Below, in pieces: positions 2,005 through 57,087 of a DNA stretch of 64,000 nucleotides. Source of the stretch: Candidatus Limnocylindrales bacterium. Its GTDB lineage: Bacteria; Moduliflexota; Moduliflexia; Moduliflexales; JAUQPW01. A program made the position numbers and the translations under genes. Location of the stretch: NCBI GenBank assembly GCA_035559535.1, contig DATMBG010000010.1, forward strand, positions 25,832 through 89,831, given 5' to 3'. The notes under the pieces were generated by a model. It did not search any database. It worked only from the letters and a program-made list of their open reading frames with translations, and was not told the origin of the DNA. Every line of letters starts with the position of its first letter. Position 1 is the stretch's first letter.

Positions 2005-2907
2005 TTACCTTCTTTGTCTTTTTCTTTCATTTTCTAAAGTCAGGCACAACTCGTAAGCTTCTTCCGGTTTCATGTCTTCATGGACCACTTTTCTCACAGC
2101 CTGAATCATGGCTACGGGATCTTCAGACTGGAATATGTTTCGCCCCATGTCAACCCCTGCGGCGCCTTGCTGAACAGCCTGGTAAGCCATTCTCAGGGCT
2201 TCGAGTTTCGGAATTTTTTTTCCGCCGGCAATAACGATGGGAACCGGACAGGAAGCCGTTATGGTCTCAAATCCTTCGGAAACATAATAGGTCTTAATAT
2301 AAGAGGCACCCAATTCTGCACATATTCGGGTTGCCAGGCGCAGGTATTTTGCATCCCGAACCATCTCTTTACCTACGGCGGTAACGCCCAAAACTGGAAT
2401 CCCATACCGATGGCCCAGATCTACCAGTCGGGTCATGTTGTGAATCGATTTGGTCTCGTATTCACCTCCAACAAAGACCTGGACGGCAAGAGCTGCAATA
2501 TTCAAACGAATGGCGTCTTCAATGTCAACGGCAATTTCTTCATTGGAGAGCTCTTTAAGGATGCTGGGACCTCCACTGGCCCGGAGGACAATCCCCTTTG
2601 TAAAGGTTGGAGGAATGGTAGAGCGCAGAATTCCTCGGGTACACATAAGGGTATCGGCGTAGGGAAGCAGGGGCAGGATCGTCACATCAACCCGTTCCAA
2701 TCCTGTGGTGGGTCCTAAAAAATATCCATGATCAATGGCCAGCATCACCGTACGGCCGGTTTCCGGACAAAATATTTTTGATAATCGATTTTTCATCCCC
2801 CAATCCAGCGAATTGGAACCTCGTAATCTGAACAGTTCATTTTCCATGGGAATATCCAAATAAAAATTGTGTGTTTCTTGTAAGCTGTCTTTATCTGCCA
2901 TTTTCAA
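2005..2907 (-). CDS. class I aldolase of the DhnA/LsrF/AroA-prime family (fructose-bisphosphate aldolase-like)
   Basis: The 300-aa product has a TIM-barrel aldolase signature ([12 protein letters not shown] ... GASYIKTYY ... PVPIVIAGG). It is on the same strand, immediately upstream of otsB. Confidence 0.6.
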
Positions 2908-9100: not shown

Positions 9101-9562
9101 GGAAAGAGCCGTTTTACCTATTCCTCCCATGCCCAATAGGGCGATTATACGGCAGTGGTCGGTTCTAATCCATCGGGTTAGCTTACTCAGTTCCTCTTCC
9201 CGTCCATAAAAGGGTTCTGTTGGGGTCGCCTCCCCCCAGTCTTCTGAATAAGGTAGATCTTTCTGGGGTTTGATCCTGCTTTCAATATTCTGAATATGTG
9301 CTGTCAGCAAACTATCCCTGGCAGGTCCTTCTATCTTCATGTCCACGACCATAGCCGGGGGGGATTTAGAGAAGCCCCTACGAGCTTGAAGAAAGCCGAG
9401 AATTATAAGGGTAATGACCAGCAGGTCTAAGACAACCCAGTACAACCAGAAATGAGGCTGGATCCAGGTGAGCAGATAACTTAAAAACAGGCAACTTAAA
9501 AAGCCTATAACAATAATTAGACGCGCAAGCCTCGAGTAAGGTAGAAGGCAAAGTAATTTCAT
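6113..9562 (-). CDS. STAND NTPase: N-terminal 2-TM segment + NB-ARC/NACHT-like P-loop ([16 protein letters not shown]) + 14 WD40 repeats
   Basis: 1149 aa. Walker A and B are present. There are fourteen [22 protein letters not shown] repeats. The C-terminal tail ...[26 protein letters not shown] is typical of cyanobacterial-type WD40 proteins. Confidence 0.85.
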
Positions 9563-13078: not shown

Positions 13079-14917
13079 TTACTCCTTTTTTATGGGTTCT
13101 GAGCCTTCTGTGGGTGGGAAGCCGTAACCGGGCAAGACCCTGCCCCCCAGGGTAGCGCCGGGTTCTCCAACCTTTGGCAGGGCGCCTGGAATGGTAACCA
13201 GATTTGACCCGGACGGAACCCGGGGAGGACCCCCTCCGTCAAGGGCAAACACCCAGATGTTACCGGCCTTCGGTTCCGTGTAATAGAAAATCATATCCCC
13301 GCCGATACCACCCGAAGGTACCACGACATACTGGATCCCGTCGAGTTCATAGGTAATAGGACTTCCTATGATACCTGAACCGGTCTGGAACTGCCAGAGT
13401 ACCGTGCCTGTGCGGGCATCGAGGGCCATAAAGTAGCCTCGCATATCCCCGGTAAAGACAAGGCCACTCTGGGTTGTCACAGCACCGGCCCAGAATGGAG
13501 CGGGGCCGGTTACCTTCCAGACGATCTTCCTATTGACTACATCAAACCCTACAAAGTTACCGGTATTTTCGCTTCTTAAGTACTGTTGATAATCGGCGCC
13601 CAGATACCACTCCCCCTTCGTAGGGGGTGCAAATTTGTTCTCCGCCCAAAACTTGAGACCCATCGCCCAATCGTTGGACAGGAAGAAAATGTAATTGAGG
13701 TCGGTATTGTAAGCCAGCGGCTGCCAGTCAATGGCTCCTTCTAAGCTGGGTACAACCGGCGCAACCTCCGGACCACCGGACTGGGCTACCATGTCTGGAT
13801 TTACCTTTGGCCGTCCGGTCTCAGGATCCAAACCCAAAGTCCAGTTAATCCCGGGAACTATGGGTTCACCGTAGATGAATTTACCATTTGTACGGTCGAG
13901 AACATAGAAGAAGCCGTTCTTATCATAATGCATTAAGGCCTTTACCTTCCTGCCTCCAAGGGTTACATCGGCAAGTACCGGGGTGCTGATGCTATCATAA
14001 TCCCAACAGTCATGGGGGGTATACTGGAAGCCCCATTTGATCTTGCCGGTATCGGCATCCATGGCGATGGTCGCCGCCGTCCATTTATTATCACCCTGGC
14101 GGATGTGGCAATTCCAGGGCCCGGCATTGCCTGTGTTCCAATAAACCAGATTGAGTTCTGGATCGAAGACCCCGGTTGTCCAGGTCGACCCTCCGCCGTT
14201 CTTCCAGGTATCTCCGGGCCAGGTTTCGTTCCCAGGCTCACCGGGTCCAGGAATGGTGTAGGTGGTCCACCGTAAATTACCGGTCTTCGCATCGTAAGCC
14301 TTAACGAAACCCCTTATGCCAAACTCACCCCCCGCCACACCGGTGAGTACCATATCCTTGACCACCAACGGTGCGCCGGTAATGCTATATCCTTGTTCCC
14401 AGTCGATCACTTTAGTTTCCCAGACAACTGCACCGGTATCTTTGTTGAGGGCTACCAGACGCGCATCCAGGGTACCGACATACACCATATCGCCAAGAAG
14501 TGCCACACCCCGGTTGTTAGATCCACAACAATATACACGCTCCACATCCTTCGAGAGTTTAGGGTCATAGCTCCACTTCTTCACGCCGGTACGGGCATCA
14601 ACTGCGAATACACGCGATTGATCGGCTGAAATATAAAGTACCCCATCATGAATCAACGGGGTTAGCTCCAGACCCCGATTCTCCCCACCCGTTGTAAATA
14701 CCCATGCAGGACGAAGCCGATGCACATTAGCAGGCGTAATTTGAGTGAGTGGAACATAGCGGTGACCCTCATAGGTCCGACTGTACATCAACCATTCTGA
14801 GGTGTTGGTATGTGCTTTAAGCAGGTTTTCATAGGTCACTTCACCTGCACCAGCCTTGGAATGGAAAAACCCGATAACTATTGCCATGATCATCACAAGG
14901 ACACTCAAGATCTCCAT
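13079..14917 (-). CDS. xoxF: PQQ-dependent methanol/ethanol dehydrogenase, XoxF-type (lanthanide-type DYD motif)
   Basis: Vicinal CC (VYCCGSNNRG), the catalytic region PHDCWDYD with Asp two residues after the catalytic Asp (a XoxF signature), and eight-bladed PQQ propeller repeats. The probable signal-peptide start is MEILSVLVMIMAIV at 14917; the track ORF runs to 15028. Confidence 0.8.
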   Translation of the reverse strand: MEILSVLVMIMAIVIGFFHSKAGAGEVTYENLLKAHTNTSEWLMYSRTYEGHRYVPLTQITPANVHRLRPAWVFTTGGENRGLELTPLIHDGVLYISADQSRVFAVDARTGVKKWSYDPKLSKDVERVYCCGSNNRGVALLGDMVYVGTLDARLVALNKDTGAVVWETKVIDWEQGYSITGAPLVVKDMVLTGVAGGEFGIRGFVKAYDAKTGNLRWTTYTIPGPGEPGNETWPGDTWKNGGGSTWTTGVFDPELNLVYWNTGNAGPWNCHIRQGDNKWTAATIAMDADTGKIKWGFQYTPHDCWDYDSISTPVLADVTLGGRKVKALMHYDKNGFFYVLDRTNGKFIYGEPIVPGINWTLGLDPETGRPKVNPDMVAQSGGPEVAPVVPSLEGAIDWQPLAYNTDLNYIFFLSNDWAMGLKFWAENKFAPPTKGEWYLGADYQQYLRSENTGNFVGFDVVNRKIVWKVTGPAPFWAGAVTTQSGLVFTGDMRGYFMALDARTGTVLWQFQTGSGIIGSPITYELDGIQYVVVPSGGIGGDMIFYYTEPKAGNIWVFALDGGGPPRVPSGSNLVTIPGALPKVGEPGATLGGRVLPGYGFPPTEGSEPIKKE

Positions 14918-15652: not shown

Positions 15653-18073
15653 TTAGTTTACGGGTTGTAGAACACCTCTTCCTTCTTCCTGCAGGGTACC
15701 TTGCCCTTGAACAGACGTTTGAAAATTTACCGTAACACGTAATGCTCTTAACCCCTGGATGCCTTGAAGATCCTCCAACTCCAAATCTTCTACTTCACCG
15801 GTCAGGTAACCGGTATCCTGGAGATAGTCGATATATTGCCGATATTCTTGAGCTTCTTTAGGTTGAGAATAAACAATGGCGATCTTACCGGGTTGAGTTA
15901 ACCGCTCCTCCCCACCTTTAATCGTGGCTTTATCGATGCGTTTCTTCACAATTTCGTATCGGATGTTGTAGGCCCCATCCACATCGAATTGCTTTTCATC
16001 GATGCGGAACCGAATGGACATGGGCATATTCTGAACCAGGATCAAATGAGTTGTTTCTAAAGGAAGCTTCAAACTTCCTTTTAACTCTTCGGTTTTCCTG
16101 GCTATCCCACAGACCGTCATGAGCTGCCAGAGGCGAAGATTTTTCAAATAAAGTAAATCGAATTTTCCATCCTCAACCAGGGAGGCACCGATATAAATCC
16201 CGTGATCCACACCATCGGTTTTATGCTTTTCAAAATAGTGGGGAAACATAGCCTGGGCTTTTTCTTCTTCTTCATCGAGATAATCTGAGATGGTATCATT
16301 GATTCGGGCAACGCTTTCTTCAAAATCCTTCCGCTTACGATAGATAATTCCCAATTGTGGGTCCAGGGCAGATCGATAAGCCTGAATTTTATCCTGGATA
16401 CCCGGACCGAAATCCTTCAAGGTATCGAACAGAGGCTCAACTTCCCGACGTAAGAAATCAAGCAAAGTGATTTCATCTCCGGAGCCCAGACTCACTTCTA
16501 CTTTTGCTATTTTGTTATTGATCCGGTAAACAAGTTCATCGAGAATAGGAAGGGATTTATAACTCGCCGCCAGGAGAATAATTTCCCTGACCAGCGTCAG
16601 GTGCTCGATTAAATCAGCCTGAATCGCTGCATTACGCTGCGTAGAGGAGCCCCGGATATCTGTGGCCCCAAATAAGGGATAAACGTTATCGAATACAATC
16701 TGCTCTATTTCCTCGTGGATACCCCGATTACGTTTCTCAATATAGTTAAGAACGGCTTTTCGAAAACGCCAATCTACCGAAGGATGGATGGCGGTGTACT
16801 TTTTCTTGATGATGGCCTGAACACGATTATCCAGCTCTTCCATACTTCGATTAACGGCCACAGAGAACAAAGGAAGAACTTCCCCTAACTTCAGGGCATT
16901 TAAGGCATTCAGTCCGCCGGGGTTCGGGGATCCCAATTCCATGGTCCCGATCAGTTTATCCTGATAGTAGAGAGGCGCAACGATCATGCTTCGAATCCCT
17001 TGGGCGAGGATCTGATCTTCAACCGGCGAGCGATGGGGATAAGTTACAAGATCTTCAATGATTAGCAAATTCCCCTGTTTAACCGAACGTTCATAAATAG
17101 AACCGGCAAAGTCAGAAGTTTTAAAATGTTGAGAATCGGAGAAGATACAACATTTCTCGAGTTTACGTCCATAATTAATCAGAAATACCTGATCCCCCTG
17201 GATAGCTGCAAGTCCCAACACCAGATCCGGTAACCTGAGGAGTGTTCTTAGCTTTTCCTGCAAGCTGCGGAATTTTTTATTGGAGACAATAGATTCCCTG
17301 TCTATCAAATCTCGCTTTAAAGATGAAAGAACCTCTTGATCTGTGACATCGGTAGCCGTAATGACCGTAAAACCGTGAAACTCAAAATTCTCAGGGGGTA
17401 TGAGTTCCATCCAGGTCTTTAAGTTCGTCAGGTTATTGAAGAGGTATTTTTTTTCCTCATCGGTCAGGAGTTTGACTTCTCCGACTTTTTTTACCTCACA
17501 AAATCGTGGATCAAAGTTGAGCTTAAAGTGACGGTCTAATCCCGTTTCAGGATCTCGGGTTGTAAATATCAGAGGATATTCGAACTCAAATTTTACATCG
17601 TAAAACTTCTGGAGAATCTGGCTATAGGCTTTCAACAGGGTACCATAGGTCATGGCCCGCTCATCTAAATGCGTTCGGCCGATGAAGTTCTTATCTTCCA
17701 TCAGAAATCGCTTAAAAGATGGCGTGGCATAGAAAATCCGGAAGTGATAAGGAATAATAGCCGCCAGATAATCTCGATCCCAAAAAGCCGGTGGAAAAAC
17801 CAGAGTCATCAGCATATCTATGAGTTCTTTGTGCTTCTCGAGGATCGAGAGGTCTTCAATAGGACCTAATAACTCAGGTACCTTCTCTAATTCTTCTCGA
17901 ACTTTTTTAATAAGGGGAGCCTTAAAGGCCTGATCCCAGGATCCGGTCTGATTCCAGAAGTCTATAAAGGGTGAGAAACTGAGGACACATTTAAAAGGAA
18001 ACTTCCGGGTATTAGAGATCTGGATAAGGCTCTCGTCAAAAACCAGATTAAATTGTTTATTGATTGTAATCAT
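15653..18073 (-). CDS. large cytoplasmic protein with central GAF-like domain, function unknown
   Basis: 806 aa; the central segment ...LIIEDLVTYPHRS...LIGTMELGS... is GAF-like. The rest has no motif I recognise. Confidence 0.45.
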   Translation of the reverse strand: MITINKQFNLVFDESLIQISNTRKFPFKCVLSFSPFIDFWNQTGSWDQAFKAPLIKKVREELEKVPELLGPIEDLSILEKHKELIDMLMTLVFPPAFWDRDYLAAIIPYHFRIFYATPSFKRFLMEDKNFIGRTHLDERAMTYGTLLKAYSQILQKFYDVKFEFEYPLIFTTRDPETGLDRHFKLNFDPRFCEVKKVGEVKLLTDEEKKYLFNNLTNLKTWMELIPPENFEFHGFTVITATDVTDQEVLSSLKRDLIDRESIVSNKKFRSLQEKLRTLLRLPDLVLGLAAIQGDQVFLINYGRKLEKCCIFSDSQHFKTSDFAGSIYERSVKQGNLLIIEDLVTYPHRSPVEDQILAQGIRSMIVAPLYYQDKLIGTMELGSPNPGGLNALNALKLGEVLPLFSVAVNRSMEELDNRVQAIIKKKYTAIHPSVDWRFRKAVLNYIEKRNRGIHEEIEQIVFDNVYPLFGATDIRGSSTQRNAAIQADLIEHLTLVREIILLAASYKSLPILDELVYRINNKIAKVEVSLGSGDEITLLDFLRREVEPLFDTLKDFGPGIQDKIQAYRSALDPQLGIIYRKRKDFEESVARINDTISDYLDEEEEKAQAMFPHYFEKHKTDGVDHGIYIGASLVEDGKFDLLYLKNLRLWQLMTVCGIARKTEELKGSLKLPLETTHLILVQNMPMSIRFRIDEKQFDVDGAYNIRYEIVKKRIDKATIKGGEERLTQPGKIAIVYSQPKEAQEYRQYIDYLQDTGYLTGEVEDLELEDLQGIQGLRALRVTVNFQTSVQGQGTLQEEGRGVLQPVN

Positions 18074-28133: not shown

Positions 28134-30059
28134 TTATCCTTTCATAGAATCGATCACAAACGCCCTGAAATCCTTCTTTCGGATAAGATCAGGCTCTTTG
28201 GAAACGGCCTCCAATACCAGGGTGAAAGTCCGTACCATATTTTCTCCTGTGAGGGAATCTTCTGACTTCTCAGATAGAATCGGTAAAGTGAGCGTTAAAG
28301 TCCGGGACAGCAGTTTATTATCTGAAAGGAAGGCCTTCGGACGTGTTGAAACAATTTTTAAGGCAGTTTGTACCAAATCCATCAAGAGATCTCCCCGGAT
28401 CAAGGTCGATTTATCCTCGGTGGCTACCTGAAATAGCGAATCGAGAACTCCGGGTAGCAGCAGTTTCTCTTGATCGTACAAACCTGGATTCCTGGCTACG
28501 GTAATCAGGGCTAACCGGACGGTATCTTCTAACAAAACTCCGGCCACTAAGCGGTTTGAACCTCGATAGATAGCTTCCAGAGTCGTCACCAGGGTATCGG
28601 CAAGTAAATTGGGATAGCGCTCAAAAATAGCGGAATTTCTGGTGACAATATTCATGGCCAGTTGGGTTATCTGGGTTTTTTGATCTTCGGTTATAAATTG
28701 AGCAACGGCTCCTGACAGGGCTTTTAAGATAGATTTCATCGTCTGGGACAAAAGATCGGGCTGAAAATCCGAAGAAGAAGCCGGTTCATGTTTCCGACCA
28801 CCCTTACCGGGCTTTCGGACAGGTTGGGAGCTGAGGATAAGCTGCAAATTTCGCAGGGTTTCGGTTAAAGAGGTTACAAAAAGCTGTTTAAACAACTCTC
28901 CACTAACCGCCGCGTCCGGATTCTCTCCCACAGCTTGCAAAACACCCTTCAAAACCTGGGAAACGACATCTTGATTTTGAAGAAATACGGCTGAATTCTT
29001 TCCGATAGTTTCAAGTGAAATTTTAAGAATATCCGAGAACAGGGCCTTATTAGGATTCAATAACCTGCTGAGATCTTGATTGGCAACCTGAAGGACCGAG
29101 CTCAGAACCATAGAAGCCAGGTTTTCTCCCCCCCCTATTAACGAAGCATTGCGGGATATGCTATCCAGCGCTATCTGTAAAATATCCGTCAGGGTTTGGG
29201 TTCGGAAGACACTATCTTGTCGAAGATTAACCGAAACGACATCCAAAACCGATGTAATCACATCCTGCAAGACTTCTTTATTTATCCACAATCCGGTGGT
29301 TTTAGAAACCCCATCGATGGTTGCCTGGAGGAGCTCTTTCAGATAATTTCCCTTGGTTGCTACGGTAATATGATCGGAAGCATGATTTAGAACTGCCCTT
29401 AGGACCGAGCCGAATTTATTATCGCCTAAAAACAAACTTGAATTATTGGCGGCGATTTTAAGGGTGGTATCTAAAAGCCCCTTGAAGATCTCATCTTTGC
29501 TGAGGGCCGTTACATCGGTTGGGAAAACCTGTAAAAAGGTGGTAATGGCTCTGGAGAGGGTAGGATTGCTTTCGGCGAAAAGCGGTGCATTTTCCCTTAC
29601 TACACTCAACGTGAGATCAAAAATTTTTGTAAATAGCTTGCTTTTCTTTTTCTCTTCTATTTTAAACAAAGCGGCAATTGCGGCATATTGCTCCTCTTCC
29701 TCCACATGGGCAAAGATAGTTTGAAACTCTGGAGCATTCTTAAAAACTTTGATAATACTTTTAGCTCCCAGGATTCCTTCGTAAGCCTCAATAAGGGATT
29801 GAATACTTGTTTCCGCTGTTTCCGGAACATCCTTATCCTGCCAGGGTTTATGATAAGGCCCTCCGGGCCGAACCAGATTTTTTCCTTCATTTTGAAAGTA
29901 ATCTTCAACTATTAACCACCCGGTTTCTTTCTTAGGCCTGGGCAATACAATCTTCTCCTGGACCACTTTCTGGGTAACCAAATTTTGAATTCCAAAACCA
30001 AACTTTAAGGCCGCTCTAACCCCTGCAAATATAAGATCAATCTCTCCTCCCCCAAACAT
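28134..30059 (-). CDS. 641-aa internally repetitive alpha-helical protein of unknown function
   Basis: At least 7 repeats of ~40 aa with pattern N.a.F......l...vL..vL.a. It is 4 nt upstream of the SBP gene, so probably co-transcribed. Confidence 0.5.
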   Translation of the reverse strand: MFGGGEIDLIFAGVRAALKFGFGIQNLVTQKVVQEKIVLPRPKKETGWLIVEDYFQNEGKNLVRPGGPYHKPWQDKDVPETAETSIQSLIEAYEGILGAKSIIKVFKNAPEFQTIFAHVEEEEQYAAIAALFKIEEKKKSKLFTKIFDLTLSVVRENAPLFAESNPTLSRAITTFLQVFPTDVTALSKDEIFKGLLDTTLKIAANNSSLFLGDNKFGSVLRAVLNHASDHITVATKGNYLKELLQATIDGVSKTTGLWINKEVLQDVITSVLDVVSVNLRQDSVFRTQTLTDILQIALDSISRNASLIGGGENLASMVLSSVLQVANQDLSRLLNPNKALFSDILKISLETIGKNSAVFLQNQDVVSQVLKGVLQAVGENPDAAVSGELFKQLFVTSLTETLRNLQLILSSQPVRKPGKGGRKHEPASSSDFQPDLLSQTMKSILKALSGAVAQFITEDQKTQITQLAMNIVTRNSAIFERYPNLLADTLVTTLEAIYRGSNRLVAGVLLEDTVRLALITVARNPGLYDQEKLLLPGVLDSLFQVATEDKSTLIRGDLLMDLVQTALKIVSTRPKAFLSDNKLLSRTLTLTLPILSEKSEDSLTGENMVRTFTLVLEAVSKEPDLIRKKDFRAFVIDSMKG

Positions 30060-30914: not shown

Positions 30915-33086
30915 TCAGGGCTCTGCGGGTGTGGCGCTCCATCTCCAAAGATCAACGTCTTTGATATCACGAGGCCCAGGTCTCAAGGTTTTTTGAACTT
31001 TAGGTAAAATGGTTTCCATAGTTTCCAGATAAAGACGGAACTGATTAAGTTCAGGAGAAATCTGGTAAGCCTGATTCCTGAGAGTAAAGGCTTGTGCATC
31101 TCCCTGGGCTTTTAAGATTTTTTCCTCCTTGAAGGCCAGGCCGGATTGGATCGTTTTTGCAGCTTCCCCTTTAGCCTGATTCACTGATTCTTCTGCAAAG
31201 GTTAATGCTCGGTTAATGATATGGAGTTTATCCTCCTGGGCACTGGCCACATCCCGGAATGCAGAATGAACCTCCCGGGGAGCATCTACAGCCAACAGTT
31301 GAACAAAGAGAACTTCTATACCGGCTTCATAGGCATCTAGAGCCTCTTGCAGAAGATGCTGGACCTTCCTTTCTATATTTCCCCTTTCTATGGTAAGCAC
31401 GGCATCAATTTTCATCTGTCCAATGACTTCACGAAGTCCAGATAATGTGAAGCTCCGTACCAGACGGTCCGGTTCGTTCATCCGATACGCATATTGTACC
31501 GGATCCTTCACCTTATAGTGTACCGTTAGATTGATATCCACAATGTTCTCATCCCCGGTCAGGAAGAAAGATTCCTCCTCTATCTGTTTCTGTTCAGACC
31601 AAAGACTATTCGAAACCATGAACTGTGAGCCTAAGTTTGAACCCTCGGTCACTGTCTGGGCTTTGACCTGATTCTGGCTATCTAAGGAAAGATTATTCGT
31701 TCTAAATCCAAGCTCAACCCTTCGAATCAAATCCTTATGGACCTTTTCAATTTTTTCAATAGGCCATGGAACGTGGTAATGAAGGCCGGGAGCAAGGTTG
31801 GAGGCAATGATCTTACCAAACCGTAATTTTACTCCGATCTCTCCGGGTTGGATTGTAACGAAACCGCTATACAAATATATAACCGCAAGTGCAATGAGAG
31901 CACCCGCTTTGATCCGGATAGCCGTTAAATGGAAACCTGTTAGGGAGCTAAACTTATCCCGAAGATGGATCCATTCTTCTGGAACATTGGTTCGTCGGAA
32001 GCTGAGAATAAACAAACTGATTACTCCGAGAGCCGCAACGGTTTTGATGCTCTCAGGAATCAGATTGGAGGCGGCCCCAAAGGTCATTCGAGGATCCAGG
32101 CCAGAGCTCCAATATATCCAGTTGACTACATACCCAGCTAACAAACTTACCACAACAATGGTTCCCAGATAGAGGGCCACGACTCTGCGCCCCAGAAATT
32201 TTAGAAGGACGACTATGGTTCCAAGGTTTGTGGCGGGTCCAGATAAGAGAAAAATCAGTGCCGCTCCTGGATTTAACCCTTTTAGGATCAGGGTTGCAGC
32301 AATGGGAGTGGAAGCGGTGGCACAGGTATACATAGGAATACCAATAAGCAGCATAACCAACATGCTCATAAAACCACCCCTTAAATATTTTTCGATAACA
32401 GACGCCGGGAGAAGAACCGCGATAACCCCGGATAAGATTACTCCCACTGTTACCCAGTAAGAGGTATCATCAATCAATTGTTGAAACGTTCTATAAAACT
32501 TCTGGATCCAGCCGCCAGACACACCTACAGGTCCAAGCACGGTCTCAAAGTAAGATTCTTCTTTGAGAGCATGGGAATGATGATCTGGCAAAGAATGGGA
32601 GTTCCTAGCTACAGCAGGACCATGATCCTGGGGTGTAAAAGGTGGATCAGGCGTTTGAGTATTTTGTTTTTGATCCCCCCAGAAATTGGTAACGATCCCA
32701 GCTGTTACCGCTGTAACAAAAGCAGCTATGGGACGTATAGTTGCCATGATAGGATCCATTAAAGCATAACTGACGAAGATGGTATCTACATCCATCTCGG
32801 GAGTCGAAATCAGAAAAGAAACTGTTGCTCCATTATTAGCACCCTGTTTTTTTAAGGAGAGGGCAGTTGGCACAACGCCACAAGAACAGAGTGGCATGGG
32901 TACTCCAATTAGAGATGCCCAGAAAACCGATTTGATCTTTCCGGTTCCCAGGTACGTAAGGATGGCCCTCGCAGGGATCAACAAGATGATAAGAACGCCT
33001 ACCAGATAACCAAATAATAGGAAGACGGAGGCTTCTTTAAGGATGATCCAGGTCTCTTGAAGGATTTGGAATAAAAAATCTATCAT
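30915..33086 (-). CDS. fusion protein: COG0701/ArsP-like two-repeat permease (CxC motifs) + C-terminal SPFH/band-7 (HflK/stomatin-like) domain
   Basis: N-terminal 460 aa are multi-TM with MPLCSCGVVP and PMYTCATASTP, an ArsP-like duplicated Cys motif. C-terminal 260 aa are SPFH-like (QPGEIGVKLRFGKI...). Confidence 0.7.
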   Translation of the reverse strand: MIDFLFQILQETWIILKEASVFLLFGYLVGVLIILLIPARAILTYLGTGKIKSVFWASLIGVPMPLCSCGVVPTALSLKKQGANNGATVSFLISTPEMDVDTIFVSYALMDPIMATIRPIAAFVTAVTAGIVTNFWGDQKQNTQTPDPPFTPQDHGPAVARNSHSLPDHHSHALKEESYFETVLGPVGVSGGWIQKFYRTFQQLIDDTSYWVTVGVILSGVIAVLLPASVIEKYLRGGFMSMLVMLLIGIPMYTCATASTPIAATLILKGLNPGAALIFLLSGPATNLGTIVVLLKFLGRRVVALYLGTIVVVSLLAGYVVNWIYWSSGLDPRMTFGAASNLIPESIKTVAALGVISLFILSFRRTNVPEEWIHLRDKFSSLTGFHLTAIRIKAGALIALAVIYLYSGFVTIQPGEIGVKLRFGKIIASNLAPGLHYHVPWPIEKIEKVHKDLIRRVELGFRTNNLSLDSQNQVKAQTVTEGSNLGSQFMVSNSLWSEQKQIEEESFFLTGDENIVDINLTVHYKVKDPVQYAYRMNEPDRLVRSFTLSGLREVIGQMKIDAVLTIERGNIERKVQHLLQEALDAYEAGIEVLFVQLLAVDAPREVHSAFRDVASAQEDKLHIINRALTFAEESVNQAKGEAAKTIQSGLAFKEEKILKAQGDAQAFTLRNQAYQISPELNQFRLYLETMETILPKVQKTLRPGPRDIKDVDLWRWSATPAEP

Positions 33087-50044: not shown

Positions 50045-51031
50045 GTGATACCTAAGACCCTCTTCTTTTTATTGCTTGAAATTGTTTTAGTTGTCTGTCA
50101 GGCCTGTACGGCAAAAAAAGCCCCTCCTCCCTTTGTAATTCCAAATATTGTGGATGCAACCATTTCTTTAAAGGATGTTCCTTCAGATTTTGTTCTTAAC
50201 CCGAAAACAAATACCCTTTATGTGGCTTATAGTCAAATTCCGGAAATTGCTGTCGTGGACTTGACTAACCGGAATGTCCTTCGTACCATTTCTCTTCGCC
50301 AACCGGCCAGTGCTTTGGTCCTTAATTCTGAAGATAACCTTCTCTATCTTCTCAGCCTGAAGCCTCCTCTTTTTCAGGTCGTTCATTTAGAAAACGATAC
50401 GATTCTGCCGGCCCTTTTATTACCCCATAAACCTACCTCCATGGCGACCAATCCAACAACCCATAAAATCTACATAACCCATCAAAACGATGAAAAGGTT
50501 TCCGTGATCGATGGGCTTACCTATCAAGTTACAACCGAAATCAAAGTCGGCTCTAAACCGACCGGAATTGCCATAAACTCGCGAACCAATCAGATTTATG
50601 TGGCCAACACCGAAGACGATACCCTATCGGTTATCGATGGGGAAAGCGATAAAGTTATTGCAACGATTCCCGTAGAAAGTAGGCCTTCCCATTTGGTGGT
50701 TAATCCCCTAACTAAAAAGATTTATGTTACCAATTCCCGGAGTAACACGCTCTCTGTAATCAACGGGGATACTCATAAAGTGGATGGGATTCTGGCCGTT
50801 GAAGAAAGTCCTTATGGAATGGACCTTAACCTAAAAAATAACTTACTCTATGTGGCCAACCGGAAGAGCCAGACTATTTCGGTGATTAACAGTCTTTCCA
50901 ATCGGATTTTAACCGCCTTTCCCGCAGGGCGTGACCCTCTTAAACTGGTTATTAACCCGGAAACGAACGATCTTTACTTTACCAACAAAGGCCAATCTCT
51001 CATTTTGATGGTTCACATTCAGGTGAAATGA
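50045..51031 (+). CDS. YVTN-family beta-propeller repeat protein, probable lipoprotein/periplasmic
   Basis: Seven ~40-aa repeats with ..LYV.N..S.T.SVID... and a hydrophobic N-terminus ending VCQAC. Start uncertain (GTG at 50045). Confidence 0.6.
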   Translation: MIPKTLFFLLLEIVLVVCQACTAKKAPPPFVIPNIVDATISLKDVPSDFVLNPKTNTLYVAYSQIPEIAVVDLTNRNVLRTISLRQPASALVLNSEDNLLYLLSLKPPLFQVVHLENDTILPALLLPHKPTSMATNPTTHKIYITHQNDEKVSVIDGLTYQVTTEIKVGSKPTGIAINSRTNQIYVANTEDDTLSVIDGESDKVIATIPVESRPSHLVVNPLTKKIYVTNSRSNTLSVINGDTHKVDGILAVEESPYGMDLNLKNNLLYVANRKSQTISVINSLSNRILTAFPAGRDPLKLVINPETNDLYFTNKGQSLILMVHIQVK

Positions 51032-51050
51032 AGGTAAGAGAAAACAGAGA

Positions 51051-51113
51051 TCAGGAGTCCGGAGTTAGAAGGTAAAAAGATCTTCCGGTTTCTGACTCCT
51101 GACCTTTCGTTTT
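51051..51113 (+). terminator. two-tier hairpin (TCAGGAGTC...GACTCCTGA with inner CCGGA...TCCGG) followed by CCTTTCGTTTT, ending at the threonine dehydratase start codon
   Basis: Read directly from the sequence. Confidence 0.4.
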
Positions 51114-52091
51114 ATGAGACAGTCCTTATATCGACCAACCCTCCAGGATGTTCTGCAGGCAAAGAAAATTATAGCTCGATATCTGTTAAGAACGCCACTC
51201 CATTACTATGCTTCCCTCTCCCAGCTGTTGGGAGCCGAAGTCTATGTAAAACATGAAAATCATCAGCCTATTGGAGCTTTTAAGATTCGAGGGGGTATTT
51301 ATCTTCTCTCTCAGTTGAGCCCGGAAGAGCGAAGTCGGGGGGTTATCACAGCCTCTTCAGGAAATCACGGGCAATCCATCGCCTATGCCTCCAAACTTTT
51401 CGGGGTGAGAGCGATCATTGTGTGTCCTGAAAATGCCAACCCAGATAAAATGGAAGCCATAAAAAATATGGGAGCCGAACTCCTCTTCCATGGGAGAGAG
51501 TTCGATGATTCTCGGATTTATGCCGAACAAATCGCCCAAGAAAAGGGTTACCGATATATCCATGCCGGAGATGAGCCATTGTTGATTGCTGGCGTAGGAA
51601 CGATTCATCTGGAAATCCTGGAAGACCTGCCCAATGCCGAAGTGATCATTACCCCCATTGGAGGCGGAAGTGGGGCTGCGGGGGCCTGTACGGTGGTTAA
51701 AGCGATTAACCCGGCGATACGAGTTATCGGAGTTCAGGCTGAACAGGCCCCCGCGGTCTATCTCTCCTGGAAGGAGGGGCGTGAGGTGATTCGTCCTTCT
51801 ATGACTTCTTTTGAAGGTCTGGCAACTCGATCCCCGTTTAAACTTCCCCTGGGAATTTTGAGGGATTTTCTGGATGATTTTTTAGTGGTGAGTGAAGAGG
51901 AGATTGAACGGGCCATTTTAATCCTGTTAGAAAAAACCCACAATCTGGTAGAGGGAGCCGGAGCTTCTCCGCTGGCGGCGGCCTTAAAAATTCGAGAGTC
52001 CCTGGTCGGGAAAAAAGTGGTTCTCGTTATGAGTGGCGGAAATATAACCCTTTCCGGGCTACGGAACCTGTTAATAAAACATCTGAAGTAG
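51114..52091 (+). CDS. PLP-dependent threonine/serine dehydratase (fold-type II, IlvA/TdcB/serine-racemase-like)
   Basis: PLP-lysine motif AFKIRGG, SSGNHGQSIAYAS and a Gly-rich IGGGSGAAG loop; 325 aa. Confidence 0.75.
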   Translation: MRQSLYRPTLQDVLQAKKIIARYLLRTPLHYYASLSQLLGAEVYVKHENHQPIGAFKIRGGIYLLSQLSPEERSRGVITASSGNHGQSIAYASKLFGVRAIIVCPENANPDKMEAIKNMGAELLFHGREFDDSRIYAEQIAQEKGYRYIHAGDEPLLIAGVGTIHLEILEDLPNAEVIITPIGGGSGAAGACTVVKAINPAIRVIGVQAEQAPAVYLSWKEGREVIRPSMTSFEGLATRSPFKLPLGILRDFLDDFLVVSEEEIERAILILLEKTHNLVEGAGASPLAAALKIRESLVGKKVVLVMSGGNITLSGLRNLLIKHLK

Positions 52092-52351
52092 AAAATGTTT
52101 GACAAATTTTAAGGAAATCACTATGCTGTATTTTGTGTTTGTCCCTAACATTATATAGCTTCAGACAGATTACCCCGCCTTTTTTAGGTAAGGACCTGAT
52201 GAACTTCCTCCTGAGAAAACTGGTGGCTTTACTTCTGAAACTATATAATTCTTTCTTAACGTCTTTAAATGTATCAGCTCAGGGCATGAAAGATCCCTAC
52301 GGGTCAGTTCATTTCCATGGGCTGAAGATCGACTCTTTGAAGGAGATGTTC

Positions 52352-53359
52352 ATGCAAAGAATTATCCGTGCTGGCTTAGTCTTTGCCTTGGTTTTTACTC
52401 TGGGAGGGCTGATGATCTTAGCCCAGGAATCCCAAAAAACAACCGAACCTCAACAAAATCCTCCAGAAGCTCCAAAATCCGAAGCTGCCAAATCCGGAAT
52501 CGCTGCCAAGGTTAACGACCATGTCATTACTACCGAGGAGGTAGATTTCTTTTTGAATCGAGTTTTATCCAGGCTCAAAGCCAGGAATCAAGGCCAGGAG
52601 GTGCCTCCTGAACGGGTAGCCGAGGTCCGCAAGGATTTGATCAACCGGCTTATTACCCAGGAAGTCCTCCTCCAGGAAGCCCAAAAAGAAAACGTGACGG
52701 TTTCCGATGAAGAGGTCAACGAAGCCGTTACCGCCATTCAAAATCAAGGCACCGATGTGGAGTTGGATAAATTAAAACCTCTGGTGACCAAAAACCTCAT
52801 TGTGGATAAGCTGGTCCAACAAAATATCATCTCTAAAGTCGATATAAGTGATCAGCAGGCCGAAGAGTATTACAAGGACAAGGAAGAGCAATTTAAACAT
52901 CCAGAACAGGTTAAAGCCAGCCATATTTTAATTCGGGTTGATCCCAATGCCCCTCCAGAAAAGAAAGAAGAAGCCAAAAAGAAAATCAACCAGGTGTTAA
53001 ATGAAGCAAAGTCCGGTAAAGATTTTACGGAACTGGCCAAGAAGTACTCGGAAGAGCCTGGTGCTGCGGAAACCGGTGGAGATCTTGGATACTTTGGTCG
53101 CGGCGCGATGGTCCCTCCCTTTGAAGAAGCCGCCTTTAAATTGAAACCAGGAGAAATAAGCGATATCGTGGAAACCCAATTCGGCTACCATATCATCAAG
53201 CTTACAGATCGGCGAGAAGCCGGAGTGACTCCCTTCCCGGAAGTTAAAGAAGATATCAAATCCAATCTCAAACAAGAACGGATTCGCGAAGAGGTTACCA
53301 AATGGATTGAAGAGCTTAAATCCAAGGCCAAAATCGAGGTGGTAGAAAACCCGAAATAG
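52352..53359 (+). CDS. SurA/PrsA-like periplasmic parvulin-type peptidyl-prolyl isomerase
   Basis: Signal peptide MQRIIRAGLVFALVFTLG preceded by AGGAG; C-terminal parvulin domain (ASHILIRV ... GGDLGYFGRGAMVPPFEEAAF ... GYHIIKL). The track ORF starts earlier at 52133. Confidence 0.7.
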   Translation: MQRIIRAGLVFALVFTLGGLMILAQESQKTTEPQQNPPEAPKSEAAKSGIAAKVNDHVITTEEVDFFLNRVLSRLKARNQGQEVPPERVAEVRKDLINRLITQEVLLQEAQKENVTVSDEEVNEAVTAIQNQGTDVELDKLKPLVTKNLIVDKLVQQNIISKVDISDQQAEEYYKDKEEQFKHPEQVKASHILIRVDPNAPPEKKEEAKKKINQVLNEAKSGKDFTELAKKYSEEPGAAETGGDLGYFGRGAMVPPFEEAAFKLKPGEISDIVETQFGYHIIKLTDRREAGVTPFPEVKEDIKSNLKQERIREEVTKWIEELKSKAKIEVVENPK

Positions 53360-53505
53360 GACGGACTGCAAGCGCGGTTTTTTCTCTTGACAAACGAAGG
53401 CTTCCATTCTATCAATACCTTTGTACCCTGGTTCATAATCTCATTTTCACAATTTCCTTTTAGAGTTGTTAACAGAATGGAAACAACCAACCAAGGAGGT
53501 GCTTA

Positions 53506-54111
53506 ATGATGAGCCCAAAAGCCTTTGCGAAGCGTATTGTAACCTTGGGGATAGCCCTGGGGATGCTGGGAGTCTTCGGAACTTATGTAACCTATGCTGG
53601 TAATTTAGAACCCATTAAAACCAAGACCCACCTTAAAGTGGGAGATCCGGCCCCTGACTTTACCTTACCAGCTTCCATGCCTCTGGATGGAAAAGATAAA
53701 ATTACCCTGTCTGATTTTAAGGGAAAAAAGAACGTAGTTCTTTCGTTCCATGTTTTGGACTGGACCCCCACCTGAACCCAGCAGGTTTCTTCATTCCAGA
53801 AAGAATTATCTCGGTTTGAAGAAAAAAATGCCCAGGTACTGGGTATCAGTGCAGACAGCGTATTTGCACATAAGGTATGGGCGGAATCTTTGGGTCTAAA
53901 ATATCCTCTACTGAGTGATTATAACAATGAAGTAGCTAAGAAATACGGGATTTTCCGTAATGAGGATTTTGCAGGAACGGCCAGGATTCCCAACGAACGG
54001 GCCATTTTTGTCGTTGATAAAAATGGAATTATCCAGTACGTCAATGTAGGGCCGATTACAGAAGTACCCAATGTGGAAGAGGTATTAAAAGTGTTGGATA
54101 CCTTGAAATAA
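53506..54111 (+). CDS. selenocysteine-containing BCP/PrxQ-type peroxiredoxin (in-frame TGA at 53773-53775 at the peroxidatic Cys position), N-terminal signal/anchor
   Basis: Track ORFs 53506-53775 and 53890-54111 are in the same frame and separated only by the TGA. Read-through gives ...VVLSFHVLDWTPT-U-TQQVSSF...GISADSVFAHKVWAESLGLKYPLLSD, matching the BCP motif FYPKAxTPGCT. A hairpin sits 11 nt downstream. Confidence 0.65.
53786..53824 (+). promoter_or_regulatory. candidate bacterial SECIS hairpin (TTTCTTCA-23 nt-TGAAGAAA) starting 11 nt after the UGA
   Basis: Perfect 8-bp stem 53786-53793 / 53817-53824. The spacing matches the fdhF-type SECIS placement. Confidence 0.4.
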
Positions 54112-54161
54112 AAGATCTCCATTTCTGTAAGTTTCCCTTATTAAGATCTTTACTTATAAGA

Positions 54162-54191
54162 AGCCGATGTTTAAAAACATCGGCTTTTTTT
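54162..54191 (+). terminator. intrinsic terminator AGCCGATGTTT-aa-AAACATCGGCT + TTTTTT after the peroxiredoxin gene
   Basis: 11-bp stem followed by a 6-T run. Confidence 0.7.
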
Positions 54192-55243
54192 GTAAAAGAG
54201 GAAAGACCCTTCCTCTTTGCCCCCCGGTTTTGTTTTAGAATGGAACATCCTTCCCTGACTGGCTTAAAATGGAACTGGTTGACGAAAATTATCCTTTTAC
54301 CGGAAAAGGGCTTAGGGATGAAGTTGGAATGTGTCAATAACGAACTTGCAAGTGTCTTCAGAAGGATTCCCCTGACCCCTTTCCTATTTTCCCTCATTCC
54401 CTCAACGGTGGGATAAAAGGGCCAAAATCCTAAAATATCCTCCGATAGGTATAAAGTTTGCAGGATTTAAGGTGACAAATGATAATTTGGCTGCTGAGTT
54501 ACGTTTGTTCTTCTATGAGTGCGGCGGAAATGGTATTCAGCAGCCGCTTTATCATTAACTAGGAAGGACATCCTCCCAGAGGGATTTTTTATCAACTTCC
54601 TGAAGTGTTGGAGGAAAGCTATGAAATATTAAGCCAGAAACTGAATTATTCCTCTAACAAAGTGATAGAAGTAAAGGTGCAGAGTACGACAGCGAGTTCT
54701 ATCCGGTCAGCGAGTAAACCGGGTGGGCGGCCGTTACCTATAAGGTCTCCCCTATAGTTCTTCAACCCCTTAAGATGCTGCGAAAGAAAGGCATTTTACA
54801 TTTGACGCTCTTTCCTCAACTAACCCAGATACTTGTTCATAAAATTTCTCGAGGATGCGGTCCTTTCTGGCTTCATGGGGCTTTAACCCTCCACTTTTCT
54901 GGAGAAGGTCTGACCTTGCTGAGAAGGTATAAAAGTCGGCTCCTGGAAGGAAGGAATACCCCTGGCATAATACCTCTCCTGTCTATTGGCGTCCTTGAAG
55001 AGAATTTAAAAAATCGGAAGGAGCAAAAATCATCTGAATTGGCTTACTTACAAGCTTATGTATTATTCCGGTGCCTGCTTAAGCACAAGAAGGAAATAAA
55101 AAGACTTCTTGACAAATTAAATGAAATTGATACAAAAGGTACGGACTCTTCTCCAGATGGCTTTTTGAGAGGGGAAAGCCTTCTGGCTGGCTGTAAACTT
55201 GATTCATCCAATTCCGGAAGTTCATGAAATCACGTTGACTTTT

Positions 55244-55273
55244 CCAAGATTCAGTAGTAAGATATGATATCTT
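55244..55273 (+). promoter_or_regulatory. putative promoter (TTGACT-N17-TAAGAT) overlapped by a 15-bp palindrome AAGATATgATATCTT (55259-55273)
   Basis: Read directly from the sequence, about 45 nt upstream of the HTH-REC gene start. Confidence 0.35.
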
Positions 55274-55318
55274 GGTAAAGATGGTGAAAAATGAACTTTG
55301 CGTAAAAGGAGTGTAGCT

Positions 55319-55885
55319 ATGTTTTATAAATTAATGACTGTAAATGACTTGAAAGATTATTTACGTTTAGATAGAAGGACCTTATATAGACTGATTAAAG
55401 AAAACCGCATTCCGGCTATTAAAGTAAGTGGTCAATGGAGATTCCGTAAAGAGCAAATCGATGAATGGTTGGAAAACCAGCAAAATCTACCCAAACAGGA
55501 TCTCAGACCCAAAAAAAGAATTCTCGTAGTGGATGATGAAGAAGAAGTTCGAGATGTCATTCAGAAAGCCCTTTCCAAATCTGGTGAGTATCGAGTCGAT
55601 ACGGCCAGCAGTGGCAGTCAGGCTTTAGACCTCCTCCAAAAATCTACTTATCATTTGATGTTTGTCGATATTAAAATGCCCGGTATGGATGGTTTAGAGC
55701 TCATTAAAAAGGCAAAGGATCTCCATAAAGATATTAAAACGGTGGTTATAACCGGTTATCCTTCGAAAGAAAATGCCATTGAAGCCCTTAACCTGGGAGT
55801 GACCAGCTATCTGGAAAAGCCTCTGGACGACATCAATCAGGTTCTTCATGTAACCAACAGGATTTTTGAGCCGTCTCTTAATTAA
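55319..55885 (+). CDS. response regulator with N-terminal excisionase-family HTH and C-terminal receiver domain
   Basis: MTVNDLKDYLRLDRRTLYRLIKENRIPAIKVSGQWRF (HTH_17-like), then ILVVDDEEEVR...MFVDIKMPGMDG (REC). Start chosen at the ATG 8 nt after AAGGAG. Confidence 0.65.
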   Translation: MFYKLMTVNDLKDYLRLDRRTLYRLIKENRIPAIKVSGQWRFRKEQIDEWLENQQNLPKQDLRPKKRILVVDDEEEVRDVIQKALSKSGEYRVDTASSGSQALDLLQKSTYHLMFVDIKMPGMDGLELIKKAKDLHKDIKTVVITGYPSKENAIEALNLGVTSYLEKPLDDINQVLHVTNRIFEPSLN

Positions 55886-55923
55886 GCTGTTTCGATAAAA
55901 ACCCTTTACAGCTAAAAACAATT

Positions 55924-55980
55924 AAAGTCGCTGCTATGATACAGACCCTACAGGGTATAGTAGCGACTTTATTTGTTTTG
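55924..55980 (+). terminator. long hairpin AAAGTCGCTGCTAT...ATAGTAGCGACTTT + ATTTGTTTTG
   Basis: Read directly from the sequence after the HTH-REC stop. Confidence 0.55.
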
Positions 55981-56023
55981 GGCTGCTGCCAGTACACTGT
56001 TACCTTAATTTTGACCTCATAGG

Positions 56024-56135
56024 ACTGCTTTCACTCCCCAGCTCCCCTAGCCCCCAGTTCCCCCTCTGTAGGGGCGGGAGGCCTCCCGCCCCTACTGGGG
56101 GGACAGGGGGTGAGGGGAGAGGGGCCGGGGGTGAA
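56024..56135. repeat. GC-rich REP-like composite element with nested palindromes (CCCCTCTGTAGGGG, GGCGGGAGGCCTCCCGCC, GGGGTGAGGGGAGAGGGG)
   Basis: Read directly from the sequence; same family as 2957 and 21396. Confidence 0.6.
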
Positions 56136-56325
56136 GGACCACTTAAACGTTAAACAAAACTAAATAAACAATGTACTAGCCGGTAAATTATTTATAATAA
56201 AAATTTTCCCATCGGATCCCCTCCTTTCACCCGGCTAAATTAATTTTCTAAAGTACCCCTGAGGGGGAAGCATTTTTTGTTCCTTTCTAAAGAATTCATC
56301 CCTGGCTGTTTTAGTGTTTCCACCC

Positions 56326-56354
56326 TTGACAGAGCGAGGGTTTAACCCGATAAT
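56326..56354 (+). promoter_or_regulatory. consensus-like sigma-70 promoter TTGACA-N17-GATAAT upstream of clpP
   Basis: -35 at 56326-56331 and -10 at 56349-56354, about 90 nt upstream of the clpP ATG. Confidence 0.5.
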
Positions 56355-56442
56355 GAAATAGCATCTTACGACACTTTTCTTTTGGGATATCTCTTAATCT
56401 GGCAAAGTTTTCTTTGCCGGGTTGAGGAAAAGGAGATAGAAA

Positions 56443-57051
56443 ATGTCCACCATATATCCTGTTCAAAATCAGGTTGTTATTCCCTGGGTGGTTGAAGAAA
56501 CCGGACGAGGTGAGCGAACCTACGATATTTATTCACGATTATTAAAAGATCGAATCATTTTCTTAGGAACTCCCATAGACGATAATATTGCCAATGTTAT
56601 TATTGCCCAGATGCTTTTTTTAGAAGCCGAGGATCCGGATAAGGACATCCATCTTTACATTAACAGTCCTGGAGGGTGGGTTACTTCCGGTTTAGCCATT
56701 TATGATGCCATGCAATATATCAAACCGGATGTTTCCACCATCTGTGTAGGTCAGGCGGCAAGTATGGGGGCTGTCCTCCTGGCTGCCGGGACTAAAGGGA
56801 AACGATTTGCTCTTCCCCATGCGAGGATTATGCTCCATCAACCCTCTGGAGGGTTTGAGGGGCAGGCTTCGGATATTGCCATTCAAGCCCGGGAAATCCT
56901 TCGGATTCGGGAAGCCCTCAACGAGATTCTCTACCGCCACACTGGACAGTCTCTGGACAAAATCCGGGCTGACACCGAGCGAGATTACTTCATGTCCCCG
57001 GAGCAGGCTATCGAATATGGAATCATTGATAAAATGATCGAACGGAAGTAA
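56443..57051 (+). CDS. clpP: ATP-dependent Clp protease proteolytic subunit
   Basis: [27 protein letters not shown], the catalytic Ser in GQAASMGA and His in HQP; 202 aa; AAGGAG RBS. Confidence 0.9.
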
Positions 57052-57087
57052 AGATGTTCTGAGTCTGTAGTCCGTTGTTAAAAGCTG

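Follow-up and report, generated by a model that had tools for sequence, protein, structure and literature searches.

What does the TGA codon at positions 53773-53775 of the sequence analyzed here stand for? The window, a stretch of 64,000 nucleotides (nt) from Candidatus Limnocylindrales bacterium (GenBank assembly GCA_035559535.1, contig DATMBG010000010.1, positions 25,832 to 89,831 of the forward strand), contains on its plus strand two successive open reading frames (ORFs), 53506-53775 (89 residues) and 53890-54111 (73 residues, TTG start), that are separated by this codon and that gene callers report as two genes. A preliminary description of the locus, made from the sequence, had proposed that the two ORFs are the halves of a peroxiredoxin gene in which UGA encodes selenocysteine (Sec). 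The comparative analysis presented here indicates that 53506-54111 is very probably a functional Sec-peroxiredoxin gene and that both ORFs belong to it.

The starts of the two ORFs differ by 384 nt and the ORFs are therefore in the same frame. Translation of 53506-54111 gives 201 codons with the TGA at 53773-53775 as the sole internal stop and a TAA (54109-54111) at the end. The read-through protein, with Cys in place of the stop, matches the Pfam family AhpC-TSA (PF00578) over the whole profile (1-124 of 124, E = 3.3e-38) and also the Redoxin family over the whole profile (1-148 of 148). Neither half of the split gene forms a domain by itself and the full-length AhpC/TSA domain appears only on read-through. 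Both the shared frame, split only by this TGA, and the complete peroxiredoxin obtained by read-through had been part of the preliminary description and are borne out by the translation and the domain match. The gene has a Shine-Dalgarno sequence of its own ahead of the first half, and a strong terminator does not come until the second half has ended.

The residues around the stop read W-T-P-T-TGA-T. An alignment to the solved structure with Protein Data Bank (PDB) code 2ywn places the TGA at the peroxidatic Cys and puts the second Cys of 2ywn (five residues further downstream) opposite Ser95. Cys is absent from the entire 201-residue protein, from which a 1-Sec mechanism follows; the same mechanism had been suggested earlier on the basis of the Ser at the resolving position. 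The codon at the stop-aligned column was then recorded in homologous loci identified by tblastn. Matches within 80 genome loci carried TGA (57), TGC (17) or TGT (7), with one locus (L037) contributing two matches, and the same column in 80 metagenome loci contained TGA (69), TGC (10) or TGT (1). The metagenome scan yielded no close relatives (best identity 52%) and only further Acidobacteriota-type loci. The pooled and filtered set of 161 loci consists of 127 loci with TGA (Sec forms) and 34 loci with TGC or TGT (Cys forms), with no other codon at this position, although these counts, like the Val/Pro and leader counts given below, are phylogenetically non-independent and most of the Sec forms belong to one Acidobacteriota clade. 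TGA is found in exactly one column, where all other loci carry TGC or TGT, a pattern that is therefore far beyond chance. Alternating Sec and Cys codons at a catalytic position constitute the classical signature of Sec (PMC13188914). The placement of the TGA exactly on the peroxidatic Cys, and the expectation that orthologues carry either Cys or Sec there, were thus both confirmed. Two further catalytic positions are conserved around the stop: the position of Thr87 (-3 relative to the stop) is Thr in 127 of 127 Sec forms and mostly Ser in the Cys forms, and the position of Arg165 is Arg in 161 of 161 loci and also in alignment A2.

Orthologues of the gene were obtained from a scan of a genome collection and from syntenic loci that were fetched through relatives of the FtsH protein encoded in the window. 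The genome-collection scan identified the locus L001 in the metagenome-assembled genome JAUQPW01, the DNA of which is ~93% identical to 50492-57075 of the window and in which the TGA is kept. The FtsH proteins of the syntenic loci are 93% (L169 and L170) and 79% (L167 and L168) identical to that of the window, with the next FtsH relatives reaching only ~65%. NCBI assigns a protein with 100% identity to the window FtsH to a metagenome-assembled genome labelled Candidatus Limnocylindrales bacterium, Chloroflexota. The gene order shared between the window and the syntenic loci comprises FtsH, a beta-propeller protein, a pyridoxal phosphate enzyme, a SurA-like isomerase, the peroxiredoxin, a response regulator and ClpP. 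TGA is present at codon 90 in L001, L169/L170, L167/L168 and the paralogue-like L081-L084, all of which come from independent assemblies; the last group represents a relative that has other neighbors and that was found, with the TGA kept, in four assemblies. An N-terminal fragment of the gene is also present, and identical, in sequencing run SRR7882662. A sequencing or assembly error that turned a true TGC or TGT codon into TGA is a general possibility for any metagenome assembly, and nothing beyond this speaks for it here; the recurrence of the same TGA in independent NCBI, JGI, ENA and Logan assemblies (L001, L081-L085, L167-L170) makes the probability of such an error negligible.

Strong purifying selection acts on the coding sequence both upstream and downstream of the TGA. 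Relative to L167, the 58 codons upstream of the TGA that encode the mature part (codons 32-89) display one amino acid change and 29 synonymous codon changes, and the 111 codons downstream (codons 91-201) display seven amino acid changes and 41 synonymous codon changes. Relative to L001, the region counts for codons 91-201 are one amino acid change and nine synonymous changes, with one more synonymous difference (a TTG/CTG leucine codon) that was scored as a change by the counting script. These counts bear on a second explanation, namely that the locus is a pseudogene of a peroxiredoxin that was killed by a nonsense mutation. Two ORFs are what gene callers report for this locus, as they would for a disrupted gene, and no Sec machinery is seen in the window. 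However, the same TGA is shared by orthologues as distant as 79% FtsH identity, the half of the gene downstream of the stop accumulates mainly synonymous changes, and the stop coincides exactly with the catalytic column in each of 127 loci. Furthermore, the locus offers a direct comparison with a true pseudogene that decays quite differently. The adjoining downstream gene (54467-55227, plus strand) carries a TAG at 54560 that replaces a Tyr codon and a frameshift near 54721-54724, and L167 contains an intact counterpart of 244 residues (13803-14537, no Pfam match). The lesions differ in L001 and L169/L170, and the identity is just 46-60%. Lineage-specific lesions and low identity are thus the local look of decay, and the peroxiredoxin gene is unlike a pseudogene. 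It is extremely unlikely that the peroxiredoxin gene is a dead gene. A disrupted gene and a TGA that vanishes on resequencing were two of the outcomes that the preliminary description itself had named as fatal to its proposal; selection downstream of the TGA argues against the former and the independent assemblies against the latter.

The UGA is followed by a hairpin that resembles a bacterial Sec insertion sequence (SECIS). Its perfect lower stem had already been pointed out; folding confirms all 8 bp (table 1) and the start of the stem at the 11th nucleotide after the UGA. The minimum-free-energy fold of a 63-nt segment that includes the stem has an energy of -16.3 kcal/mol (z = -2.85), which 2 out of 200 shuffled sequences match, and the hairpin alone has an energy of -12.9 kcal/mol. 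Four comparative lines of evidence support the hairpin as a putative functional RNA element. First, the 57 nt after the codon fold more stably in Sec forms (mean z = -1.84, n = 63) than in Cys forms (mean z = -0.18, n = 23; Mann-Whitney p = 4e-7). Second, synonymous positions are unusually conserved over the hairpin. Among codons that encode the same residue in the window and in L082, 15 of 18 are identical in codons 91-109, compared with 36 of 97 elsewhere (Fisher p = 5e-4); the corresponding values for L167 are 16 of 19 over the hairpin and 47 of 85 and 28 of 57 elsewhere; and L001 is identical over codons 84-123 (120 nt), with 27 differences in the rest of the gene (p ~0.004). Third, the window and the Dehalococcoidia locus L030 encode the same peptide on both arms of the stem (V-S-S-F ... 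F-E-E-K) with different codons, GUU UCU UCA ... UUU GAA GAA in the window and GUC UCC UCG ... UUC GAG GAG in L030. The differences amount to three compensatory synonymous double changes, from U-A/A-U to C-G/G-C, that leave all eight pairs of the lower stem intact. Fourth, when the structure of the window is imposed on 13 sequences, 71.6% of the pairs are formed, compared with 62.9% for column shuffles (0 out of 500 reach the observed value) and 31-53% for slid registers.

The bacterial SECIS model (fig. 2 of PMC13188914) comprises an apical loop of 3-9 nt, an upper stem of 4-16 bp, a distance of 16-37 nt between UGA and loop, a minimum free energy of -7.5 kcal/mol or lower and a G in one of the first two loop positions. 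The hairpin in the window lies within these limits with respect to loop size (8 nt), spacing (25 nt) and energy (-12.9 kcal/mol). The length of the upper stem agrees with the model if the 8-bp lower stem is counted; above the U/U loop there are five pairs with a one-base bulge between them. The comparison of the loop with the SECIS consensus that had been suggested for this locus therefore turned out favorable for size, spacing and energy and unfavorable for the position of the G, which is considered next.

A number of observations weigh against the Sec reading. In the minimum-free-energy fold the G is third in the loop AAGAAUUA, outside the first two positions; an alternative fold with a GAAU tetraloop has an energy of -8.4 kcal/mol, and the L081 relative has a GAAC tetraloop in which the G is first. 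Some SECIS elements are known to depart from the model (PMC13188914). A search of the whole window against Rfam at gathering cut-offs, and of 53700-53900 at E <= 10, returned no SECIS or other relevant family, and RNAalifold found no consensus structure across lineages in 13 Sec-form sequences, probably as a result of a stem register that differs between lineages. The Pro of the canonical peroxiredoxin motif PxxxTxxC/U is Val83 in the window protein (codon 83, 53752-53754). Finally, a Pfam search of 48 window ORFs detected no selA, selB or selD, none of these genes was seen in the flanks of the relatives, and ARAGORN found no tRNA-Sec gene (selC) in the 64-kb window and seven relatives, so that the case for Sec decoding by this organism is an indirect one.

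The observations on the machinery would also fit a third explanation, that the UGA is read as a standard amino acid and that no selenium is involved, either through a reassigned code (Trp or Gly) or through near-cognate read-through (Cys or Trp). Bacteria do show low-level read-through of UGA. The use of TGA in the window argues against a different code: TGA closes 17 out of 47 well-supported ORFs, and a scan for in-frame TGA codons gave 15 mechanical matches among which none is plausible besides 53773-53775. As TGA is an ordinary stop for these ORFs and lacks any other plausible in-frame occurrence in the window, a reassigned code is excluded. Decoding as a standard amino acid in either form would leave the conserved and co-varying hairpin after the codon without a role, and the alternation with Cys codons at the catalytic site is the classical Sec signature referred to above (PMC13188914). 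Overall, standard-amino-acid decoding is very unlikely and Sec is the preferred reading of the codon.

The Sec-peroxiredoxin begins with a leader that had been described as a signal peptide or anchor of an exported protein. The leader consists of a basic n-region (K5, K9, R10), a hydrophobic core of 20 residues (11-30) and the sequence T-Y-A|G-N-L-E-P, where the bar marks the predicted cleavage site; it contains no twin-arginine motif and, as Cys is absent, no lipobox. In the comparison with L167, 22 out of 31 leader residues differ but just one of the following 58, and the L167 leader terminates at the corresponding point with a canonical A-H-A|G. A fast-evolving leader joined to a conserved mature part is typical of cleaved signal peptides. 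N-terminal hydrophobic leaders were identified in 51 of 63 Sec-form loci and in 3 of 23 Cys-form loci, and many of the Acidobacteriota Sec forms carry textbook A-x-A|QQ sites. The upstream neighbor of the peroxiredoxin gene encodes a SurA-like peptidyl-prolyl isomerase, an envelope chaperone. These features, in agreement with the earlier description, suggest that the enzyme is likely to act outside the cytoplasmic membrane and that the leader is probably cleaved after Ala31. A point against this reading is that it depends on sequence features, in which a membrane anchor and a cleaved signal look alike. The alternative would be a Sec-peroxiredoxin that is not released, with the leader acting as an uncleaved membrane anchor or with the domain even facing the cytoplasm. 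At ~20 residues the hydrophobic core is on the long side for signal peptides, cleavage motifs of the A-x-A type are stronger than T-Y-A|G, and a Sec-glutaredoxin encoded next to the peroxiredoxin in L081-L084 (described below), a possible reductant, has no leader. On the other hand, the basic residues precede the hydrophobic core (N-in topology), conservation in the comparison with L167 begins exactly at Gly32, where the A-H-A|G site of L167 is also located, and the Acidobacteriota Sec forms have their textbook signals. An uncleaved anchor is therefore considered unlikely.

The features of the locus are collected in table 1. The terminator-like hairpin downstream of the SurA-like gene suggests that the peroxiredoxin gene is transcribed separately. 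The putative promoter was not called by the promoter scan because the last base of its -10 hexamer is not T.

Table 1. Positions of features of the probable Sec-peroxiredoxin locus within the window
Feature	Positions	Strand	Basis
Terminator-like hairpin and T-run after the SurA-like gene	53363..53380	+	Consensus scan match only
Putative promoter (TTGACA, 17-nt spacer, TATCAA)	53387..53415	+	Read from sequence
Shine-Dalgarno sequence GGAGG, 6 nt ahead of ATG	53495..53499	+	Read from sequence
Complete gene, very probably for a selenoprotein (201 codons including Sec90, then TAA)	53506..54111	+	Translation, domain match, orthologues
Predicted signal peptide, residues 1-31, predicted cleavage T-Y-A|G after Ala31	53506..53598	+	Sequence features, L167 comparison
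Predicted mature enzyme before Sec (G32-T89), including the active-site stretch V83-x-x-x-T87-x-x	53599..53772	+	Translation, alignments
UGA codon for Sec90, peroxidatic position	53773..53775	+	Homologue columns, 2ywn alignment, orthologues
Predicted mature enzyme after Sec (T91-K201), including catalytic Arg165 (53998-54000)	53776..54108	+	Arg invariance, purifying selection
SECIS-like hairpin	53786..53824	+	Fold, comparative evidence
Lower stem, TTTCTTCA with TGAAGAAA, perfect 8 bp	53786-53793 with 53817-53824	+	Fold
2x2 U/U internal loop above the lower stem		+	Fold
Upper stem	53796-53800 with 53809-53811 and 53813-53814	+	Fold
Apical loop AAGAAUUA	53801-53808	+	Minimum-free-energy fold
Intrinsic terminator, 14-bp hairpin and U7 tract	54158..54191	+	RNAfold -19.3 kcal/mol; absent from consensus scan

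Based on these features a mechanism can be proposed. The UGA at 53773-53775 would be read as Sec, with the hairpin at 53786-53824 recruiting SelB and Sec-tRNA(Sec) against competition from release factor 2, as the comparative evidence suggests. The 31-residue leader would take the unfolded chain through SecYEG and would be cut probably after Ala31, leaving a soluble enzyme of 170 residues outside the cytoplasmic membrane. Following established peroxiredoxin chemistry, the selenolate of U90, placed by Thr87 and Arg165, would attack the peroxide and be converted to a selenenic acid that would in turn be reduced by an external thiol partner. An external thiol would be needed for recycling because the protein is free of Cys and has no resolving residue.

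An extracytoplasmic location would imply that the reductant is found in the envelope. Cell-envelope peroxiredoxins fed by transporters of the DsbD/ScsB type are one comparable system, in which an external reductant regenerates a single redox-active residue. No DsbD, CcdA or TlpA was detected in the 64-kb window (Pfam on 48 ORFs), and clustering of conserved neighbors around the homologues revealed no partner that is shared with the window. Glutaredoxins are associated with some of the relatives: L081 (6432-6662, minus strand), and likewise L082-L084, contains a probable Sec-glutaredoxin gene that is convergent to the L081-type Sec-peroxiredoxin gene. This 77-residue glutaredoxin (PF00462, E = 4e-14), whose motif S-T-G-U-R-P-C (UxxC) contains an in-frame TGA, is cut to 58 residues by the gene caller and has no counterpart in the window. 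Furthermore, several homologues are peroxiredoxin-glutaredoxin fusions, and glutaredoxin-type reductants are therefore used somewhere in the family.

Potential thiol partners are encoded near other members of the family. L167 contains a gene (1532-2281, plus strand) for a TlpA-like thiol:disulfide oxidoreductase of 249 residues (Redoxin/AhpC-TSA/Thioredoxin_8) that is located ~10 kb upstream of the Sec-peroxiredoxin gene; the protein is a candidate envelope reductant, and the window has no equivalent. Nitrospiraceae-type Cys-form loci (L008, L011 and others; e.g., 3414-3869 of L011) have a gene for a thioredoxin-fold protein directly downstream of the peroxiredoxin gene (11 loci). This protein, which has a CEPC motif (PF00085, E = 1e-9), is encoded beside cytoplasmic Cys forms and is absent beside Sec forms; it is likely to be a dedicated reductant. 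A separate set of 11 Acidobacteriota loci (L016, L034, L036, L052, L054, L055, L068, L070, L075, L079, and L080) encodes an exported protein of ~500 residues downstream of and convergent to the Sec-peroxiredoxin (e.g., 519-2498 on the minus strand of L080). The gene is directly adjoining in seven of these loci and ~0.2-1.5 kb away in the others, and the protein combines a weak SurA_N-like region with a DsbA-like motif (FTDFQCPSC) at the C-terminus. No sequence similarity was detectable between this protein and the SurA-like isomerase encoded upstream of the peroxiredoxin in the window, and the neighborhoods of the Acidobacteriota genes contain no detectable counterpart of that isomerase.

The Sec and Cys forms differ in more than the catalytic residue. 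The position of Val83 (-7 relative to the stop) is Val in 120, Ile in three and Pro in four of the Sec forms and is Pro in all 34 Cys forms. Val occurs at this position in at least three clades, as HVLDWTPTU in the window, HVFDFTxGU in Dehalococcoidia and YVLAFTGGU in Acidobacteriota, and the active site with Val83 is a variant of the canonical one. The sequence T87-P-T-U90 fits the motif T/S-x-x-U/C, and membership of the peroxiredoxin family stands despite Val83 because the family is defined by T/SxxU/C (PMC1794560). A Cys at position +6 is present in 30 out of 34 Cys forms and in none of the Sec forms among the 161 loci, and the domain is entirely free of Cys in 84 out of 127 Sec forms. It appears from these comparisons that the Sec forms are mostly secreted, have Val in place of Pro and lack a resolving Cys, whereas their nearest Cys counterparts are 2-Cys enzymes of the cytoplasm that have Pro, a pattern that is worth testing. 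A broader interpretation, put forward tentatively and with somewhat less than even confidence, is that the gene in the window belongs to a distinct clade of exported 1-Sec peroxiredoxins in which the change from Cys to Sec was coupled to the loss of the resolving Cys, the replacement of Pro by Val (VxxxTxxU) and the gain of a signal peptide. Such a clade would be frequent among soil Acidobacteriota, would also occur in the Chloroflexota-labelled lineage studied here, and would serve to remove peroxide outside the cytoplasmic membrane. If this is true, Sec might be favored outside the membrane by its resistance to irreversible over-oxidation where a repair system is absent. The contrast between the Sec and Cys forms represents a natural experiment on the evolutionary choice of Sec over Cys, and raises the question of which reductant serves the selenenic acid outside the cytoplasm. 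In the annotation, one selenoprotein gene should replace the two fragments; gene callers split the same gene in well over a hundred related public genome and metagenome loci, and the locus marks the host as a probable user of selenium.

Three further observations concern other parts of the window. The C-terminal 600 residues of a 1149-residue protein (6113-9562, minus strand) contain ~13 WD40 repeats and all of the Pfam matches listed (25 families shown), which leave the N-terminal half uncovered. Two proteins of 806 residues (15653-18073, minus strand) and 641 residues (28134-30059, minus strand) match no Pfam family at E <= 1e-5. In a protein of 723 residues (30915-33086, minus strand), an ArsP_1-type predicted permease (residues 14-322) is fused to an SPFH/Band 7 domain (residues 411-642).

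The record of Sec-peroxiredoxins with a TxxU motif goes back to 2001-2005: the Sargasso Sea data contained 43 genes of COG1225 (PMC1088965), a survey of genomes in 2006 listed 12 (PMC1794560), and a count of 2016 gave 91 proteins in 78 organisms (PMC5029168). The Sec-Prx family is listed as experimentally supported in a 2026 review, in which no member other than PrxU of Eubacterium acidaminophilum (2001, Sohling et al.) is cited for experimental characterisation (PMC13188914). The window protein shares with the Prx family of Zhang and Gladyshev (TxxU, PF00578/COG1225) the AhpC/TSA fold, the T-x-x-U motif, the existence of Cys homologues and a SECIS or SECIS-like element right after the UGA. 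It differs in its VxxxTxxU motif, which is PxxxTxxU in the description of the family, and in its export signal; the words 'secreted', 'exported', 'periplasm' and 'signal peptide' do not occur in the text of the review (PMC13188914). The literature searched contained nothing relevant on exported or periplasmic Sec-peroxiredoxins, an absence that is no proof of novelty. Like the window protein, PrxU (NF040737) has Sec in place of the peroxidatic Cys, but the window protein reaches only 80.8 bits with this model (cut-off 270) and hence belongs to another subfamily. The PrxU of E. acidaminophilum is a cytoplasmic enzyme of the Prx1/AhpC type. Prx-SUH (NF045827) has a CxxU motif, whereas T-P-T-U in the window contains no Cys, and the score with this model is 53.1 bits (cut-off 298).

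The best solved relatives are BCP/PrxQ proteins, namely those of Sulfolobus tokodaii (2ywn/4g2e, E = 3e-25) and Bcp4 of S. solfataricus (3hjp, 7e-23). These archaeal chains agree in the overall domain and in the Thr and Arg residues with the window protein, which differs from them by Ser at the resolving position (+5), Sec as the peroxidatic residue and the export leader. Chains of the Prx1 type and AhpE score nearly as well as those of the BCP type and the subfamily is not firmly assigned. The assignment to BCP/PrxQ in the preliminary description is thus supported by the nearest structures but not by the bcp model (PRK09437, 76.4 bits, cut-off 140) or by the Ser at +5, and the window protein scores below the cut-off of every curated NCBIfam peroxiredoxin model. 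The 1-Cys enzyme AhpE of Mycobacterium tuberculosis (1xxu/1xvw, E ~1e-19) resembles the window protein in its single redox residue and external reductant, but uses Cys in place of Sec. Within the literature searched, no description was found of the export signal, the 1-Sec design in its strict form or the replacement of Pro by Val, all of which represent modest variations. Overall, the gene in the window very probably encodes a Sec-Prx from a long-established family, within a subfamily that has no curated model of its own.

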